64,000 nucleotides of DNA from Promethearchaeota archaeon Loki_b32 (GTDB lineage: Archaea; Asgardarchaeota; Lokiarchaeia; Sigyniarchaeales; SOKP01): positions 81,206-145,205 of the forward strand of contig NJBH01000008.1 in assembly GCA_005223125.1 (NCBI GenBank), given 5' to 3'. The position numbers and the translations under genes were made by a program. Below, piece by piece: positions 16,929 to 47,469 of this stretch; the first letter of the stretch is position 1, and each line of letters begins with the position of its first letter. The notes beneath the pieces are model-generated. The model was not told the origin of the DNA and ran no database searches. It saw only the letters and a list, made by a program, of their open reading frames with translations.

Positions 16929-17450
16929 ATGCCACAAAAGTTCATTCTTAAGATCCTTACGGCAGGGGAAGGAGGAGTGGGGAAAACAACACTACTCCAT
17001 AGGTATGTAGAGGGGAAATTTTCAGCTGAAACTAAAATGACAATTGGTGTAGAGTTTTTCTTGAAAGAGACGCAAATTGACTCGAATCACTGCACTCTAC
17101 AACTCTGGGATTTTGGTGGTCAAGAGCGGTTTAGATTTTTACTTGAAAGTTACGTATTAGGAGCAAAAGGAGCACTTCTCATGTTTGACCTCACAAGGTT
17201 AATGAGTCTTGAAAATTTGCAGCAATGGATTAACATTGTTCGGAAAGGTGATCCAAATCTTCCTGTTCTCTTTGTAGGTACAAAATTGGATTTAACCGAT
17301 GAGATCCAGATAGATGACGATTATGCTATGTCTTTTTTAAATGAATTTAACTTGATTGATTATATAAAAATCTCTTCAAAAACGGGCGAAAATGTTGGTA
17401 CAGTTTTTGAAATGTTAACAAGAAATATATTAGAGCGCCAAGCCTATTGA
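16929..17450 (+). CDS. Rab/Ras-like small GTPase
   Basis: G1 GEGGVGKT, G2 TIGVEF, G3 WDFGGQERF, G4 TKLD, G5 SSK. Confidence 0.95.
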   Translation: MPQKFILKILTAGEGGVGKTTLLHRYVEGKFSAETKMTIGVEFFLKETQIDSNHCTLQLWDFGGQERFRFLLESYVLGAKGALLMFDLTRLMSLENLQQWINIVRKGDPNLPVLFVGTKLDLTDEIQIDDDYAMSFLNEFNLIDYIKISSKTGENVGTVFEMLTRNILERQAY

Positions 17451-18009: not shown

Positions 18010-18525
18010 ATGTCCAAAGCGATATTATTAAAGATTATCACGGCAGGAGATGGTGGTGTTGGCAAGACAACACTCCTTTATCGATATATAGAAGGGAGAT
18101 TTCTAGCTAATACGCGTATGACTATTGGTGTGGAATTCTTTCTCAAAGAGCTTAATATAGAAGGAAAAAAAATATTACTCCAAGTTTGGGATTTTGGTGG
18201 ACAGGATCATTTCAGACCTCTATTAAAGAATTATGCTGTGGGAGCAAGAGGAGCATTACTACTTTTTGATCTCACCAGACCATCAAGTTTAGAACGAATT
18301 GAGCAATGGGTTGATATTTGCAGAGGGGGGACTCAAGAGATTCCTATCATTTTCTTAGGAACAAAATTAGATCTAGAAGATCAAATAACAATATTCGATA
18401 GTTTTGCTTTGAAATTTAAGGAACAATATGGTTTTTTTGATTATTTAAAGATTTCTTCGAAAACTGGAGAAAATGTTAATTTAGCATTTGAACTATTGGC
18501 AAGAGAACTTGTAAAAGACTTATAA
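18010..18525 (+). CDS. Rab/Ras-like small GTPase
   Basis: GDGGVGKT, TIGVEF, WDFGGQ, TKLD, SSKTG. Confidence 0.95.
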   Translation: MSKAILLKIITAGDGGVGKTTLLYRYIEGRFLANTRMTIGVEFFLKELNIEGKKILLQVWDFGGQDHFRPLLKNYAVGARGALLLFDLTRPSSLERIEQWVDICRGGTQEIPIIFLGTKLDLEDQITIFDSFALKFKEQYGFFDYLKISSKTGENVNLAFELLARELVKDL

Positions 18526-22671: not shown

Positions 22672-23955
22672 ATGCCAAAGTTTATGAATCAAGCTATTAA
22701 TGATGAAATACTCGATAAACTGAGCCTTAAAAATCGATATTCCTTTGTGAATAATAACTTAATGGCTTTACTTTCACCGGAGCAGTTCAATCACTTTAAA
22801 AAAGTTCAAAAATTCTGCATGAGGTTTGAGAAAAAGAATGAAATCACTCATGGTCCTGAAGAAGACGTATATGATTGGATTCCTACTTTCGGAGCTGAAG
22901 GTTATATCACAAGAGCGCATAACTTTGAGATGATCGATGTAGAATATGAAAATTATGGTGCTGTAGCGGATTTTCTTAGATATATTGCTATAGATAATTT
23001 TGATCCTCAGTTTGCTATGGGTAGTGGAGCTACAGTTTTAGCTATAAATCCTATTTATGATCATCATGAAAACATTCCCGGTAGACTTGAAGCGCTAAAA
23101 GATTTGGTTACAGGTCAATCACCAGGATGTATTTGTATTACTGAGCCTGAAAGAGGCTCAGACGCCGTTCACCAATTAACCACCTGTGACGAACAGGAAG
23201 ATGGAAGTTATATCTTAAATGGGGAGAAAATTTATAACACAAATGCTCCTAAATCCAAATGGGCTGTTGTATACGCCACCGCTGAAGCGAATAATGGAAA
23301 TTTAATGGCTCAATTTTTAGTTAATACCAATTGGGAAGGATGGAATTGCGAAAGAGTCGGAATACCTTACGTTGATAAGCTTTATCTTGGTCATGAATAT
23401 TTAGAAAATTTAAGGGTACCAAAGGAATATATATTAGGACCTGTTGGTAAAGGGAGAGAACATCTTTTTGAAGGATTGGTTCCAGAAAGAATTGGGATTG
23501 CTTGCGGAGCTATATCACAATGCTGGGGTGCTGTATCTCATGCGGCTATTTATGCTAATATGAGAAGGCAATTTGATCAGGAAATATTGAAATTCCAAGG
23601 TGTTGGATTTCTTTTAACAGACCTCTGGGCAAAGACGACGAATTTAACCTTAGGTTTACTTAAATTTTGCGAAGAGTATGATAAGAAGATGGAAAAGTTC
23701 GAAGGTCATATCCCAGCTAACATTTCTAGAGCATTAGTTGCATCCGCAAGTCAATTTAAATATCATTGCACAAACCTTTCTAAAGAAATCTGTTATGAAG
23801 CTGCCAATTTAATGGGTGGTGCAGGACTCTCTGATAACACATTAATGAACGATTATGTGAACATCTCTAGAATTCAAGAAATTGTCGGAGGTTCAAGACA
23901 AATTCAGCAATACATTATGTCAATGGCGTTAAGGCAGCTATTCAAAATGCTTTAG
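22672..23955 (+). CDS. Acyl-CoA dehydrogenase (paralogue 1)
   Basis: ITEPERGSD, LNGEKIYNTN, R.QF...I.KFQ, MGGAG, EIVGGS..IQ. Confidence 0.92.
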   Translation: MPKFMNQAINDEILDKLSLKNRYSFVNNNLMALLSPEQFNHFKKVQKFCMRFEKKNEITHGPEEDVYDWIPTFGAEGYITRAHNFEMIDVEYENYGAVADFLRYIAIDNFDPQFAMGSGATVLAINPIYDHHENIPGRLEALKDLVTGQSPGCICITEPERGSDAVHQLTTCDEQEDGSYILNGEKIYNTNAPKSKWAVVYATAEANNGNLMAQFLVNTNWEGWNCERVGIPYVDKLYLGHEYLENLRVPKEYILGPVGKGREHLFEGLVPERIGIACGAISQCWGAVSHAAIYANMRRQFDQEILKFQGVGFLLTDLWAKTTNLTLGLLKFCEEYDKKMEKFEGHIPANISRALVASASQFKYHCTNLSKEICYEAANLMGGAGLSDNTLMNDYVNISRIQEIVGGSRQIQQYIMSMALRQLFKML

Positions 23956-24727: not shown

Positions 24728-26026
24728 CTATGAAACAGACATCTTGTACAATGTTCTCAATGAAAGAGACATGATATATTGCTGTATCTGTCTCGAACCT
24801 CCTAATATTTCCTGAATCCGAGAAATATTTAAATAATCCTGCATTAATGTATTGTCACATAAGCCTGCCCCTCCCATAAGGTTAGCAGTTTCATAGCAAA
24901 CTTCTTTTGAAAGTGCTGTAGCTTGATATTTAAATTGGCTTGCAGAAGCAACCATTGCTTGAGAAATATTACGAGGTATATCTCCTTCAAATTTCTTGAA
25001 TTTCTCATCAAAACCCTCACAAAATTTAAGCAAACCAAAGGTTAGATTTGTTGTTTTTGCCCATAAATCTGCAAGTAAAAACCCTACACCTTGGAATTTC
25101 AATATTTCCTGATTAAATTGCTTTCTCAAGTTTGCATAAATTACCGCATGAGATACAGCACCCCAACATTGGGCAATCGCTCCACAAGCAATCGCAATTC
25201 TTTCCGGGACAAGCCCTTCAAAAAGATGTTCTCTACCTTTTCCAACGGGTCCTAATATATATTCCTTTGGTACTTTTAGATTATTAAACTTCTCTCTACC
25301 TATAAATATTTTAGGAGTCCAAGGTACTCCAACTCGTTCGCAACTCCATCCTTCCCAATTGGTATTTATTAAGAATTGAGCCATCATATTTCCATTATTC
25401 GCTTCAGCGGTAGCATAAGCGACAACCCATTTGGATTTTGGAGCATTTGTATTAAATATTTTCTCTCCATTTAAGAGATAACTTCCATCTTCCTGTTCCT
25501 CGCACGTGGTTAACATATGAACCGCATCTGAGCCTCTTTCAGGTTCAGTAATAAGAATTGCGCTTGGTGATTGACCTGTAACCAAATCTTTTAGCGCTTC
25601 AAGTCTAACTGGTATGTGTTCATGGTGATCATAAATAGGATTTATAGCTAAAACTGTAGCTCCACTACCCATAGCAAACTGTGTATCAAAATTATCTATA
25701 GCAATATATCTAAGAAAATCTGCAGCTAATCCCCACTCAGGATAATCTAAATCAATCATTTCAAAAGTATGTTGTCGAGTGATGTATCCCTCTGCTCCAA
25801 ATGCAGGAATCCAGTCATATATGTCTTCTTCAGGACCGTGAGTGATTTCATTTTTTTTCTCAAATCTTAGACAAAAACGCTGAACTTTCCGAAAAAAATT
25901 AAATTGTTGTTGAGATAATATTGGAGTCAAATTATTATTAACGAAAGAATATCGATTTTTAAGGCTCAATTTCTCAAGAATCTCATCATTTATTACTTGG
26001 GTCTTAAATTTTTGCTTTTCTGCCAT
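24728..26026 (-). CDS. Acyl-CoA dehydrogenase (paralogue 2)
   Basis: Same motifs as paralogue 1. Confidence 0.92.
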   Translation of the reverse strand: MAEKQKFKTQVINDEILEKLSLKNRYSFVNNNLTPILSQQQFNFFRKVQRFCLRFEKKNEITHGPEEDIYDWIPAFGAEGYITRQHTFEMIDLDYPEWGLAADFLRYIAIDNFDTQFAMGSGATVLAINPIYDHHEHIPVRLEALKDLVTGQSPSAILITEPERGSDAVHMLTTCEEQEDGSYLLNGEKIFNTNAPKSKWVVAYATAEANNGNMMAQFLINTNWEGWSCERVGVPWTPKIFIGREKFNNLKVPKEYILGPVGKGREHLFEGLVPERIAIACGAIAQCWGAVSHAVIYANLRKQFNQEILKFQGVGFLLADLWAKTTNLTFGLLKFCEGFDEKFKKFEGDIPRNISQAMVASASQFKYQATALSKEVCYETANLMGGAGLCDNTLMQDYLNISRIQEILGGSRQIQQYIMSLSLRTLYKMSVS

Positions 26027-26219: not shown

Positions 26220-27506
26220 ATGGAAAAACGATTTGAAACTCAAGTTATAAATGATAAGATTTTAGAAAAATTAAATCTTGCCAACAGGTATAAATATCTC
26301 AATGAAAATCTATTTTCAATTCTTTCTGATGATCAATTTACCTTTTTAAAAGAAGTTCAAGGCTTTTGTTTAAAATTTGAAAAAGAGAATAGTATAACAC
26401 ATGGACCAGATGAGGATATTTACGATTGGTATCCCTCCTTTGGGGATCAAGGATATATAACTCGTCAACATAATTTTGAATGCATTGATTTGAATTATAA
26501 AGAATATGGAATGGCTATGGATTTTATGAGAATATTAGCAATGGATTTTTTTGATCCTCAATTTACTATGGGAAGTGGAGCTACTGTTATTTGCATTAAT
26601 CCTATCTATGAACATCATGAAAACATACCTATAAGATTAGAAGCTTTAGAGGAAATGGTGAGAGGAAAATCACCAGGATGTTTATTAATTACCGAACCTG
26701 AGAGGGGTTCAGACACCGTTCACATGTTAACAACCTGTGAGGAGCAGGAAGATGGTAGTTTTATCTTAAATGGGGAGAAGATTTTTAATACCAATGCGCC
26801 AAAGTCAAAATGGGCGGTCGCTTATGCTACAGCAGAAAAAAACAATGGCAATTTGATGGCTCACTTCTTAATAAATACCAATTGGGAAGGATGGAATTGC
26901 AAACGAGTTGGAATACCATGGACTCCTAAATTATACCTGGGAAAAGAAAAATTAGAAAACTTGAAAGTTCCAAAGGAATATGTACTTGGTGGAATAGGGA
27001 AAGGAAGGGAACACCTTTTTGAAGGCTTAGTACCTGAGAGAATTTCAATAGCAGTGAGAGGAGTAAGTGAGAGTTGGGGGGCATTAGCACATGCCATTAT
27101 CTATGCTAATTTGAGAAAACAATTTGATAAAGAAATCCTACTTTTCCAAGGAGTAGGGTTTACTTTGACAGATCTTTGGGCAAAAACCACAGCGCTTACT
27201 CATGGAATTTTAAAGTTCTGTGAAATCTATGATACCAAAATGGAAAAGTATGGAGGTAAGCTACCTGAAAACATATCACGTGCGATGGTTGCCTCAGGAA
27301 GTCAATATAAATATAATTGTGCTTTGTTATCTAAAAAAGTGTGTTATGAAGCAGCTAACCTCATGGGAGGAGCTGGTCTATGCGATAACACGTTGATGCA
27401 AGACTATCTAAATATATCAAGAATTCAGGAAATTATTGGGGGATCTAGACAGATACAAAATTTCATTATGTCAAGAAACTTAAGAAATCAATTTAAGAAT
27501 TTGTAA
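26220..27506 (+). CDS. Acyl-CoA dehydrogenase (paralogue 3)
   Basis: Same motifs as paralogue 1. Confidence 0.92.
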   Translation: MEKRFETQVINDKILEKLNLANRYKYLNENLFSILSDDQFTFLKEVQGFCLKFEKENSITHGPDEDIYDWYPSFGDQGYITRQHNFECIDLNYKEYGMAMDFMRILAMDFFDPQFTMGSGATVICINPIYEHHENIPIRLEALEEMVRGKSPGCLLITEPERGSDTVHMLTTCEEQEDGSFILNGEKIFNTNAPKSKWAVAYATAEKNNGNLMAHFLINTNWEGWNCKRVGIPWTPKLYLGKEKLENLKVPKEYVLGGIGKGREHLFEGLVPERISIAVRGVSESWGALAHAIIYANLRKQFDKEILLFQGVGFTLTDLWAKTTALTHGILKFCEIYDTKMEKYGGKLPENISRAMVASGSQYKYNCALLSKKVCYEAANLMGGAGLCDNTLMQDYLNISRIQEIIGGSRQIQNFIMSRNLRNQFKNL

Positions 27507-27576: not shown

Positions 27577-27789
27577 TTATTCTTCTTCCTCTTCTGTTCC
27601 CATTAATTGTTCGACTTTATCCTCGAGGGCTTCAACTTTTTGTTCAAGTTCCTCGATTTTTTTTTTAGTCTCGCATGTTGCACATCCATCATCTTCGCCA
27701 CATTGTGGGAGAGTATCACATACTTCTTGAAGTCCATCCATTTCTTCTAATAACTTATCAACTTCTTCTTGCAATTCATCAATACTCAA
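27577..27789 (-). CDS. Small acidic coiled-coil protein with a central 4-Cys motif
   Basis: Heptad helices flanking CDTLPQC....CATC. Confidence 0.65.
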   Translation of the reverse strand: MSIDELQEEVDKLLEEMDGLQEVCDTLPQCGEDDGCATCETKKKIEELEQKVEALEDKVEQLMGTEEEEE

Positions 27790-28947: not shown

Positions 28948-29628
28948 TTAATGCTCTTGTGTTTCTTTTAGTGTCTCTAGAATTTCAGAAATTTCTTCTT
29001 TTTTGCGATATTTTTTGACTATTTTTTTATAACTTTTAACTGATTTTTTGATTAGTTCTAGAGTCTCTTTTGGTACATTTTCTTCAGGAATTTCAAGATC
29101 CTGTATCATAAAGTCTAAACCAACAGTTAATTTATAATTTTGTTCAAAACTTTTTTTTGTAAATGTTCTAATTAAGGATGATTTTCCTACAGCAGCAGCT
29201 CCAGCTAATAAAATCTTAAATCTGAAATGGTTAGAATCGACAATTTCTCCAAGCCGGGGTTTTAAATCTAACAATGCTGTAATAGCTAATCTATAAAAAA
29301 GTCTCTCTACGTTTTTATTTTCTAACGCAGATGTTTCTAAATATTCAAATAAGTAATATTGATTTACTTTTTGAATAATTTTTTTTCTTGGAATCGTCTC
29401 TCCTATGCTTTCTTTTAAATCAGTTTTATTTCCAACTAAAAAAATTGGTATATTACCAGATTGCTCTCGGAGTTCATTGAAATAATCATCAATTTCATCA
29501 AATGTATCAGGGCGACTTAAATCAAAAATCAGACCGACTGCAGCAATACCTTTAAAAAAATCGGTTTTAAAGAAGTTAAACCGTTCTTGTCCTCCAGTAT
29601 CCCATAGTGATAAAGTAATTTTTAACAT
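28948..29628 (-). CDS. Circularly permuted Rab-like small GTPase (G3-G4-G5-G1-G2)
   Basis: WDTGGQERF near the N-terminus, then GNKTD, ETSA, then FKILLAGAAAVGKS and TVGLDF; GAGGT SD upstream of ATG. Confidence 0.85.
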   Translation of the reverse strand: MLKITLSLWDTGGQERFNFFKTDFFKGIAAVGLIFDLSRPDTFDEIDDYFNELREQSGNIPIFLVGNKTDLKESIGETIPRKKIIQKVNQYYLFEYLETSALENKNVERLFYRLAITALLDLKPRLGEIVDSNHFRFKILLAGAAAVGKSSLIRTFTKKSFEQNYKLTVGLDFMIQDLEIPEENVPKETLELIKKSVKSYKKIVKKYRKKEEISEILETLKETQEH

Positions 29629-29654
29629 ATTTAGGTTCCTACCTCATTGATGTC

Positions 29655-30359
29655 TCATGATTCCCAAATAGCAATATATTCATCTAAAATTTTATATACA
29701 TTATTAAATCCCATAACTTTATAAAATTCTTTAAGGCTTTTTTCATCAAGATTCCATTGTGATCTCATTTGAAAAGAATTAATACCATCGTTATCTAACA
29801 ATAAAAAATCAATGATTTTCAATAAAGGTTTCGGCAAGTGTTTACCGAAAAATATAACAATTTTAAATAATTTATCACGAGCAGAGATTTCTTTTGGGTT
29901 TATTACATATGGCTCACATACAACAATTTTATTTGCAATCTTTTTAGCTATATTAATTAAATCAATATGTTTAGGGTAAATATGATGCAATATATCACAA
30001 AGTACAATTACATCCTTCTTTTTCCCTTGATAATCTTGAAAATCAAAAATATTTTTATGACGCAAGATGATTTTGGTTAATTTTATATTTCTTTTTTTCA
30101 ATTCTTTTTTTCTAATTCGTTTTAGAAAACGATGGTTAAGATCTGCTCCTTCATATTCTATTGCGGGATGCAAAAACCGCATTAGGTATCCTGTACCGCA
30201 TGGCAAATCTAAGACTTTCTTTGGCCCTTTACCTATAAAAGTTGCAATTGTGGAAAATTTTTTATCTTGATCATATAATCTACGAGTTACTGCGTTATAG
30301 AGCCACCCACTACGATACATTAAACTTCTAAAACCAGCAGTTTCTATTTTTAAAACCAT
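29655..30359 (-). CDS. Class I SAM-dependent methyltransferase
   Basis: VLDLPCGTG, GAD.N, D.I...DILHH. Confidence 0.85.
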   Translation of the reverse strand: MVLKIETAGFRSLMYRSGWLYNAVTRRLYDQDKKFSTIATFIGKGPKKVLDLPCGTGYLMRFLHPAIEYEGADLNHRFLKRIRKKELKKRNIKLTKIILRHKNIFDFQDYQGKKKDVIVLCDILHHIYPKHIDLINIAKKIANKIVVCEPYVINPKEISARDKLFKIVIFFGKHLPKPLLKIIDFLLLDNDGINSFQMRSQWNLDEKSLKEFYKVMGFNNVYKILDEYIAIWES

Positions 30360-30422: not shown

Positions 30423-32465
30423 TTAGGGTGGTGAAAGTAAATTCATTTTGTTTTCGACATCTGTGTTTAATTCTTTGATTTTTTTTTCTAATATTTTAAG
30501 TTCTTTTTTGATTTCTTCAAACCTGCTTTCTTGAGTGTTCAATTTTTTTATATATCTTTCTTTTAATGAAATGGATTGACTATCTTCCCCTAAAACCGAG
30601 ATATTTTCTCTAAGTCTTACTTGTTCATCAGTCATTATGTCCCTTTCTTCATTTAGTTTATCATCTTTAGCTCTTAAATCATTTAATGTTTGAATTAATC
30701 CCGCAATTTCCTTTAATTTGGTTTCTAGATCTGGATCAATGAATTTTTGTTTTACATAAAAACCTACTCGTTTTAGAAGATCTTCTTTGTTAAAGTTCCA
30801 TATATAATTACTTGAGTAATTTTCTCTTTGTTCTTTTAATTTAAAAACTACCGCATCCTTAGGTTTTAAGGTTAATTTGAATCGCCAGTAATTAGTAGTT
30901 TCTTCGGGTTCAACTGGTTTTTCTATAACTTTATATTCATATGTCTTAGGATGATCAAGATAAAGCTCCTTTTCTTGCTCAGTTTTATTTTTGATCTTAT
31001 AAGTGGTCGTCATGTTTGTGTAATAATATTCATAAGAGTAACCGCTGCCAAATGTAACTCTATGTACACTTAAGTTTTCAGATTCTTGTTCATGAGTGAT
31101 AATTACTGCTTGTTCTATTGCATAGTTTAACAATCTCGTATCTCCTTTATTTAAGAAGGGAATAATTGCTTCTCCAGCAAGATTATCATCGTAAATGATT
31201 GTAGCAGGTCCTGTTTCTAGTGTTAAATTAGTATTATTGGTAATTTCTAAACATGCATTAGGATTTTTATCGTGGTCGTTTTTATTGTATAAAAGAATTC
31301 TATTTGATTTAATCGACTCTGTAAGGATTGGAACTAAAGCAGATTGTTTTCTTTTGATTGTTACTGGATTTGAAATATTATATTCAAACAACTCTCCTAA
31401 ATCTTTTGTTTGGGTTTTAACTTGAGATTTCACTTTATCGTAGATTTCTGTATCAGACATAACACTTTGCATGCGTCCAAATCCGCCACCTGCTGGAGCA
31501 GGAGGAGGGCGGGCACTTTTACTCATAGTTCTAGCTCTTTTTTTGGATGGTATTGCCTCCATTTCTGCCATTGCATAATCATCAAATTTATCCATTTCTA
31601 AACCCTCTTCAATCTCTGTTGGTCTAGCACTTAAAATTTTTGGTGGTTGAATAACAGGGCGCTGAATGAATATCGGCCTATAAAAGGCGTAAATGAAGCT
31701 TACTGGAAGACCTGCAACTAGACTTAATTCAATATCTTCCCAATCCTGGTTAGTCGTATTTTCGATGAGACTCCAACCAGAAAGTAGACATTTTTGCTCT
31801 AATTCTTGTTGTTTACTCATAATCAATCGATAAGATGTTTTCCAGATTGGACTTTCACGAATATAAGATACAAAAATGTTTCTTTCAGCAGCATCATCTC
31901 CACCAGACTCACAATTTATTATAATTTTTTTTGCATCCTTTTTTTTCCCAGCAATTACGGTGTCTAGGAAGAATTTCAAATCTTTTTTAATCTCTTCATT
32001 TAATATTTCAAGAGATTTAATTTCTGAGAAGTTATATTTGGCAATCAAATCATCTTCTTGTAATAAAATCAATAATTTCTCGGTAATTTTTTCGACCTTA
32101 CTCAATTTTTCTACAAATTCTATTCCCATTATCTTTCCTGAAACTTTTTTAGCACCACCTATGGTTAAATTTACATCAGCTCCTTTAATTTGTGTTATAA
32201 GAGAGGAAAAAGAATCCCTATCAGGAATATTTAGCATAATAGATTTTAACAATTGAGAAGTTTCTAAAGCAGCATCATAAGAAATCGATGAAACGTATCC
32301 CTTTTCGCTTGTATCTAGCACAAAAAGTGATTTTAATATATCATTCATTTCATCAATCTTAAATTCAAGTTCAAATTTCCCAGTACCTTTTAAGATACCT
32401 TCAAGAATGTAATAGGATACGCCGTGTTTAAATATAATTACTCTTTTTACATTTATTTTTGACAT
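30423..32465 (-). CDS. DUF4139/DUF4140-family protein with C-terminal coiled coil
   Basis: V.IFKHGV.Y, MNDILKSL, P.WKTSYRL, ENTT..DW...L.LVAG.P, GELFEY. Confidence 0.8.
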   Translation of the reverse strand: MSKINVKRVIIFKHGVSYYILEGILKGTGKFELEFKIDEMNDILKSLFVLDTSEKGYVSSISYDAALETSQLLKSIMLNIPDRDSFSSLITQIKGADVNLTIGGAKKVSGKIMGIEFVEKLSKVEKITEKLLILLQEDDLIAKYNFSEIKSLEILNEEIKKDLKFFLDTVIAGKKKDAKKIIINCESGGDDAAERNIFVSYIRESPIWKTSYRLIMSKQQELEQKCLLSGWSLIENTTNQDWEDIELSLVAGLPVSFIYAFYRPIFIQRPVIQPPKILSARPTEIEEGLEMDKFDDYAMAEMEAIPSKKRARTMSKSARPPPAPAGGGFGRMQSVMSDTEIYDKVKSQVKTQTKDLGELFEYNISNPVTIKRKQSALVPILTESIKSNRILLYNKNDHDKNPNACLEITNNTNLTLETGPATIIYDDNLAGEAIIPFLNKGDTRLLNYAIEQAVIITHEQESENLSVHRVTFGSGYSYEYYYTNMTTTYKIKNKTEQEKELYLDHPKTYEYKVIEKPVEPEETTNYWRFKLTLKPKDAVVFKLKEQRENYSSNYIWNFNKEDLLKRVGFYVKQKFIDPDLETKLKEIAGLIQTLNDLRAKDDKLNEERDIMTDEQVRLRENISVLGEDSQSISLKERYIKKLNTQESRFEEIKKELKILEKKIKELNTDVENKMNLLSPP

Positions 32466-46935: not shown

Positions 46936-47469
46936 TTAGGTTTTTTGCGAATCTCTATTTCTTAGAATTAATTTCGTTAGTAAATTGAATATTTTAGGCA
47001 CATTTTCACCAGTTTTAGAACAACACTCGATGAATCCCTCTGCTCCTTTACTCATTGCTAAATCCATCGCTTTTCTAGTAGAGACTTCCTTTAAATGGAT
47101 TAAATCTGTTTTTCCACCAACAAAAACTATTGGTAATTTATAATTAATTTCTTTTTTCACAATTTCAAACCAATCATCTACATGAGCGATTGATCCATAA
47201 TTAGTAATATCATACATAAAAATGGCTCCATTGGCTCCTCGAATATAAGATGGAAATAGAAATCTAAATCGTTCCTCACCAGCAAAATCCCAAATCTGAA
47301 GCTTTACCATTTCTCCATCTAACTCAACAGCTTTAAGATGAAAATCTACACCTAGAGTCATTGTAATATCTTGTTTAAATAAATTTGTTAAAAATCTATG
47401 AGTTAACGTAGTTTTACCAGTTTGAGAATCACCAAATATTACTATCTTAAACGTGGAAGTATATGACAA
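46936..47469 (-). CDS. Rab-like small GTPase
   Basis: GDSQTGKT, TLGVDF, KLQIWDFAGEERF, GKTD, CSKTG. Confidence 0.93.
   Translation of the reverse strand: MSYTSTFKIVIFGDSQTGKTTLTHRFLTNLFKQDITMTLGVDFHLKAVELDGEMVKLQIWDFAGEERFRFLFPSYIRGANGAIFMYDITNYGSIAHVDDWFEIVKKEINYKLPIVFVGGKTDLIHLKEVSTRKAMDLAMSKGAEGFIECCSKTGENVPKIFNLLTKLILRNRDSQKT

Follow-up and report, generated by a model that had tools for sequence, protein, structure and literature searches.

A stand-alone, circularly permuted Ras-like GTPase conserved in one order of Asgard archaea

A eukaryotic counterpart of the protein reported here is the cpRAS domain of Elias and Novotny (2008, Biol Direct 3:21; PMC2430557), in which the motif order is G3-G4-G5-G1-G2 and the chain is broken between strands beta2 and beta3. 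In their account cpRAS is a eukaryote-specific domain of the RAS family, carries a TIE G2 motif, and lies inside multidomain proteins of the VWA or COG2373-like type. A passage of Anand et al., as quoted in that paper, holds that cutting a GTPase in the beta2-beta3 turn must prevent folding. The YlqF/YawG (YRG) GTPases, among them RbgA, RsgA and YqeH, are likewise natural circular permutants of the P-loop GTPase domain. These are TRAFAC ribosome-assembly GTPases with the order G4-G5-G1-G2-G3 and a cut between beta3 and alpha2, unlike the protein studied here.

In Asgard archaea, Vargova et al. (bioRxiv 10.1101/2024.02.28.582541) list two proteins of Lokiarchaeum GC14_75, KKK41097.1 and KKK43026.1, as RasL in their supplementary table of GTPases, with the remark 'Circularly permuted sequence'. 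The permutation was noted there because the sequence needed rearranging for alignment, and 'permut' occurs 0 times in the main text. No description of an Asgard permuted GTPase in the main text of any paper was found in the literature.

We analysed a permuted GTPase, P0001, encoded in a 64,000-nucleotide stretch (the window) of a contig from the Promethearchaeota archaeon Loki_b32. A 51-residue stretch of KKK41097.1 is identical to P0001 at 42 of 51 positions, ungapped and at the same position (residue 57), and a 41-residue stretch around the P-loop from the Vargova table is identical at 26 of 41 positions, again ungapped, at residue 134. Like P0001, the two Lokiarchaeum proteins start shortly before beta3 (…ITLS[LM]WD…) and end in a basic tail; they come from another genome and species and share about 63-82% identity with P0001 in the compared stretches. 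Judged from these stretches, KKK41097.1 and KKK43026.1 are of the same family as P0001. Both the topology and the family have therefore been noted before, and P0001 is uncharacterised rather than new. What we did not find in print are the single origin of the family, its restriction to one order, the purifying selection acting on it, its probable ancestral transmembrane (TM) anchor, and its conserved synteny.

P0001 resembles cpRAS in motif order, in the beta2-beta3 break, and in having helix 5 joined directly to strand 1. The differences are as clear. cpRAS is of the RAS family, has the TIE G2 motif and sits in large proteins, whereas P0001 stands alone, belongs to RasL and has a G2 motif of Rab type, TVGLDF; cpRAS is confined to eukaryotes, while the archaeal permuted family carries a basic helix or a TM tail and occurs in one Asgard order. 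Neither a VWA domain nor any other Pfam domain was detected in the longer members P0128, P0131, P0135, P0139 and P0140 or in the L018 protein. The initial annotation of this DNA had taken the arrangement to be a different permutation from that of YlqF, RsgA and YqeH. It does differ from theirs, but it is identical to the cpRAS arrangement (PMC2430557) and hence not new. Membership of P0001 in the YlqF/YawG group is ruled out by the motif order and by NCBIfam scores far below the cut-offs (YlqF TIGR03596, 12.7 bits against 208; YqeH TIGR03597, 23.4 against 297).

The permuted gene and its predicted fold

The features of the gene are collected in Table 1. Pfam Ras (PF00071) scored 122.7 bits against P0001 (cut-off 21.6) in two partial stretches of reversed order, as had been anticipated; the best of these places residues 3-115 on profile positions 47-157, and P-loop families match from residue 138 onward. 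With a canonical-order profile built from 49 canonical small GTPases, residues 3-117 fall on positions 58-169 (3e-36) and residues 132-185 on positions 5-59 (1e-16). The halves are swapped in the same manner on Rab30 (2ew1), where phmmer aligned residues 131-185 of the query with Rab30 21-75 and residues 3-120 with Rab30 74-189. These two alignments put the cut precisely at the beta2-beta3 turn, no segment being missing or repeated, and the proposed opening at the beta2-beta3 hairpin holds. P0001 belongs to PF00071 by a score above threshold and by the presence of all five G motifs, each occurring once, although in an order other than the canonical G1-G5. It is confirmed as a cleanly circularly permuted Ras-superfamily GTPase with the order G3-G4-G5-G1-G2.

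Table 1. Features of the permuted GTPase gene and the adjoining upstream gene, in window coordinates
Feature	Position	Strand	Basis
CDS, circularly permuted RasL GTPase, 226 aa (P0001)	28948..29628	(-)	ORF and profile matches
Residues 1-120: beta3, switch II, alpha2 through alpha5 (G3, G4, G5)	29269..29628	(-)	Profile positions 58-169; VIA-align on RhoA
G3 DTGGQ, residues 10-14; D10, G13, Q14 invariant	29587..29601	(-)	Alignments
G4 NKTD, residues 67-70; N67, K68, D70 invariant	29419..29430	(-)	Alignments
G5 ETSA, residues 98-101; S100, A101 invariant	29326..29337	(-)	Alignments
13-residue linker, residues 121-133, from alpha5 end to beta1 start	29230..29268	(-)	Model DSSP; lies between both profile matches
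Residues 134-185: beta1, P-loop, alpha1, switch I, beta2 (G1, G2)	29074..29229	(-)	Profile positions 5-59; Rab30 21-75
G1 P-loop GAAAVGKS, residues 143-150; G143, G148, K149 invariant	29179..29202	(-)	Alignments
G2 / switch I TVGLDF, residues 168-173; T168, D172 invariant	29110..29127	(-)	Alignments, Rab30 match
C-terminal helix, residues 186-226, basic amphipathic, without TM helix in P0001	28951..29073	(-)	Model and sequence
26-bp spacer with GAGGT/AGGA before the GTPase ATG	29629..29654	(-)	Sequence
Class I SAM methyltransferase gene, 234 aa, directly upstream of the GTPase gene, co-directional	29655..30359	(-)	Kept in L013, L015, L019

The reading that no N-terminus has been lost also stands. 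The open frame of P0001 comprises 231 codons, of which just 5 lie upstream of the ATG, too few to encode a beta1-alpha1-beta2 unit lost from the N-terminus; the end of the methyltransferase gene and the GAGGT/AGGA in the spacer before the ATG agree with this start. The permuted gene is single-copy, being the sole one with reversed order among the 89 small-GTPase ORFs matched by the canonical profile in the genome. The remaining 88 or so are canonical Asgard RasL, a group that includes the 'Thorarchaeota Rab' (e.g. PDB 7ezb). These have the order G1-G5, and they share about 40% identity with P0001 in both halves and the G motifs.

The best solved relatives of P0001 found by phmmer are Rab30, Rab11 and Rab8, yet the label 'Rab-like' given to it at the outset describes a loose similarity only. 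No cysteine occurs anywhere in P0001, which excludes a C-terminal prenylation motif and with it prenylation of the Rab kind. No Asgard sequence specifically sister to the eukaryotic Rabs was found by Vargova et al. (bioRxiv 10.1101/2024.02.28.582541).

Structure prediction of the monomer, which had been named as a check, returned a compact G domain. The AlphaFold2 model, made from a 48-sequence alignment, has a mean pLDDT of 84.1 and a pTM of 0.81, with six strands and five helices; the two switch regions are the only parts modelled with low confidence. The order of elements in the model is beta3, alpha2, beta4, alpha3, beta5, alpha4, beta6, alpha5, linker, beta1, alpha1, beta2, and a long helix at residues 187-225. 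Foldseek ranks Rab6, Rab43 and Rab11 first among PDB structures, with about 107 columns aligned at an rmsd of about 1.8 A, and VIA-align places residues 1-121 on RhoA 50-181, Cdc42 48-178 and Rab43 64-187 with Z of 12-13 and rmsd of 1.6-1.8 A; both methods are sequential, so that these values refer to residues 1-123 and residues 134-185 lie outside them. The predicted position of beta1-alpha1-beta2 (residues 134-185) in the sheet is supported by the pLDDT and pTM of the model and by its secondary-structure order.

Conservation, range and ancestry

A search for homologues of similar length gave 335 proteins, and the best 120 of these 335 are 73-98% identical to P0001. Every protein in alignments of 16 and of 48 members starts at beta3, so that orthologues with the same breakpoints, which the initial annotation had proposed to look for, do exist. 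Down to 29% identity, D10, G13, Q14, N67, K68, D70, S100, A101, G143, G148, K149 and T168 are invariant in the 48 members. A word-index search for longer homologues (E<=1e-20) was empty, while the representative search does show permuted members of 428-755 aa. In the ESM Atlas, the permuted GTPase led to generic small-GTPase clusters only.

Full-length collinear matches were present in 68 of 400 sampled genomes of the phylum, with single-contig (closed) genomes among the carriers. By rank, the carriers make up 49 of the 53 species genomes of the genus, 63 of the 134 of the family and, within the order, 3 of the 14 of a sister family. Scoring took in seven first-look candidates for each genome, and absence means that nothing was found with P0001 as the query; in this sense the permuted GTPase was not found in the other families of the 400-genome sample. 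One borderline match in a different family proved to be two adjacent canonical genes. The permuted family is thus found in one Asgard order only. A range spanning the whole of the Asgard archaea, as the NCBI labels (Thor-, Odin-, Hod- and Hermodarchaeota) would have it, was rejected on the GTDB-based sample, and the conflicting labels on some members are taken to be coarse submitter labels. The gene is under strong purifying selection, with dN/dS of 0.06-0.13 at dS of 0.5-1.6 across the 6 pairs formed by four orthologues of the genus.

For the trees, permuted sequences were put back in canonical order and aligned together with relatives of canonical and of tandem-domain type. All 24 permuted proteins from archaea fall into a single clade (local support 97 in FastTree, SH-aLRT 94 in IQ-TREE), which shows a single origin of the family. 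The clade sits among the canonical small GTPases of the genome of P0001 and other canonical matches, and it divides into two well-supported subclades. One is made up of short proteins, about 220-290 aa in length, from the family of the window; the other holds proteins of about 280-755 aa whose C-terminal extensions contain no Pfam domain. In P0128, P0131, P0135, P0140 and L018:4986-6305 these extensions are 250-550 residues long, most with a TM helix near the C-terminus.

The nearest neighbours of the clade in the first tree were canonical relatives with a GAAAVGK[ST] P-loop, including same-genome paralogues on contigs 30, 21, 50 and 64. In the more careful IQ-TREE analysis this grouping was lost, the backbone branches being unsupported and the sister group unplaced. 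Each half of P0001 finds its best match in one and the same canonical paralogue, that on contig 30. Among the canonical relatives are tandem GTPase genes about 20 bp apart as well as fusions of two, three or four Ras domains in one protein, and the permuted protein aligns across the junctions of such tandem or fused GTPases. In the representative library, P0125, P0134 and P0145 carry three, four and two complete tandem Ras domains, respectively, and these fused forms are what a route by duplication and trimming would need. The suggestion that the permutation came from tandem Asgard GTPase paralogues is therefore plausible, with tandem genes and fused proteins among the nearest canonical relatives of the first tree; duplication of adjacent paralogues, their fusion and the trimming of the product would be the steps. 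Canonical RasL small-GTPase genes also lie in the window itself, at 16929-17450 (+), 18010-18525 (+) and 46936-47469 (-), and a three-gene tandem GTPase array is found elsewhere in the genome (C50:2539-4458).

Two eukaryotic records, P0226 (Bolivina argentea transcriptome) and P0232 (Rotaria sp.), run from beta3 to the P-loop as well, but they fall outside the archaeal clade. Both are singleton records placed next to canonical or tandem eukaryotic GTPases, and they are probably fragments of tandem Rab-like repeats rather than members of the family.

Could the gene be an artefact, that is, a truncated or chimeric misassembly, or a decaying pseudogene made of two neighbouring GTPase genes? Tandem GTPase genes are common in these genomes, and a match can span the stop codon between neighbours, as it does in G208, G203 and G128, the first and last of which were confirmed to be gene pairs. 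The conservation data have already refuted this reading, and we give it practically no weight: the identical architecture and start recur in 68 independent genomes, single-contig ones included, the synteny is kept, dN/dS is about 0.08, and the catalytic motifs are invariant. A chain that does not close on itself is a different matter. The interswitch hairpin has lost its covalent link, and the protein might exist, as the initial annotation had allowed for, as a domain-swapped dimer, an obligate one in which each chain lends its beta1-alpha1-beta2 to the beta3-alpha5 part of its partner. The compact monomer model was nonetheless predicted with confidence (pTM 0.81). In the Ras fold both termini of the G domain lie on the same face, so that a linker of 13 residues is long enough to connect alpha5 with beta1. 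We regard the obligate dimer as improbable and the self-contained domain as the better description.

The identity of motif order and breakpoint with cpRAS raises the further question of whether the archaeal and eukaryotic forms go back to one permutation event, in an Asgard ancestor or by transfer. CPRas has been considered potentially present in LECA, which would fit such a history. Against it, cpRAS is a typical, eukaryote-specific RAS-family domain with a TIE G2 motif in VWA or COG2373-like proteins, whereas P0001 has TVGLDF and finds its best solved relatives in Rab30, Rab11 and Rab8. In addition, the archaeal clade groups with canonical small GTPases of its own genome and related matches, and the archaeal family turned up in one Asgard order only. 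A shared event thus seems very unlikely. Because the archaeal protein differs from cpRAS in each family feature, both in motif and in family affinity, the archaeal permutation likely arose separately.

The C-terminal tail, the neighbouring genes and the proposed switch

Beyond beta2, P186 and E188 are nearly invariant throughout the 48-member alignment. In P0001 the tail is predicted to form a helix, whose first 20 residues have a pLDDT of about 90; the helix has a hydrophobic moment of up to 0.65, and a charge of +10 is concentrated in residues 193-210. A C-terminal TM helix is predicted in the proteins of L014-L019, which represent other genera and the sister family, in P0122, P0123, P0126, P0130 and P0137, and in the long forms P0131, P0135, P0139 and P0140. 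In most of the more distant members it lies at the C-terminus or within about 45 residues of it, and within the genus nine of the listed members keep it. No C-terminal TM helix is predicted in P0128, P0132 or P0136, or in the 226-aa subclade of the window. The distribution of the helix among the members, a pattern of predictions on an unrooted character, suggests that the family was probably anchored to the membrane near the C-terminus ancestrally and that the TM helix was lost in the subclade of the window. The basic amphipathic helix kept by the TM-less form could, as a conjecture, serve in peripheral membrane binding or in binding a partner.

The gene order at the locus is a DUF4139-like gene encoding 680 aa, the SAM methyltransferase gene, the permuted GTPase gene, a convergent HD-domain gene, the gene of an acidic protein of 70 aa, and a trio of acyl-CoA dehydrogenase paralogues. 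Complete or partial versions of this arrangement are seen in other genera and in a closed genome of the genus. The 680-aa protein (30423-32465, (-)) has a coiled-coil C-terminus and no Pfam match; in the ESM Atlas it is connected with DUF4139-like clusters, which are represented in Myxococcota and Chloroflexota as well. Its gene lies co-directionally upstream of the permuted GTPase gene in L015, L016 and L019, and directly adjoins it in L016. The pairing of methyltransferase and GTPase is kept in L013, L015 and L019, the last having two copies. The three acyl-CoA dehydrogenase-like genes (22672-23955 (+), 24728-26026 (-) and 26220-27506 (+)) are 70-78% identical to one another's orthologues and are syntenic with the GTPase locus across genera. 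The 70-aa protein (27577-27789, (-)) is highly acidic, with a CDTLPQC...CATC motif and coiled-coil-like ends, and in L013 a 69-aa gene occupies its position.

Our reading of the whole, which we would put at a probability of roughly 0.75, is that P0001 is a functional, stand-alone permuted RasL switch belonging to a membrane-tethered family that originated once by tandem fusion and independently of cpRAS. The mechanism that appears most likely is a GTP-driven switch that is tethered or directed to the membrane. The chain, starting at beta3 and switch II, would run through alpha5 and the 13-residue linker to beta1 and the P-loop, alpha1, switch I and beta2, and would form a single compact domain of the Ras type, acting as a switch through the binding and hydrolysis of GTP. 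The permutation would have arisen in a lineage of the Lokiarchaeia type, most likely when two adjacent paralogous GTPase genes fused and the product was trimmed at both ends. The conserved helix after beta2 continues towards the predicted C-terminal TM helix in most of the more distant members, and the family would then probably act as a membrane-tethered switch; the subclade of the window would have retained the basic amphipathic helix after losing the TM helix, with attachment to the membrane periphery or to a partner as possible roles.

With the tail, directed to the membrane, attached straight to beta2, and with the beta2-beta3 hairpin open, a mechanism resembling the interswitch toggle of Arf can also be imagined, in which the interswitch slides with the nucleotide state, moves the tail helix, and so links the GTP state to engagement of the membrane. 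This is speculation, and we consider it improbable. If true, a Ras-like protein of archaea would have reached an Arf-like coupling of GTP state and membrane along a route of its own.

The permuted family is a natural and strongly conserved counter-example to the folding argument of Anand et al. in the form quoted in PMC2430557. Being small and stand-alone, compared with cpRAS inside large proteins, the archaeal protein should be easier to purify and to study. Two things could be learned from it: how much covalent coupling is required between switch I and switch II, and by what means, other than prenylation, Ras-like switches are tethered to membranes in archaea.
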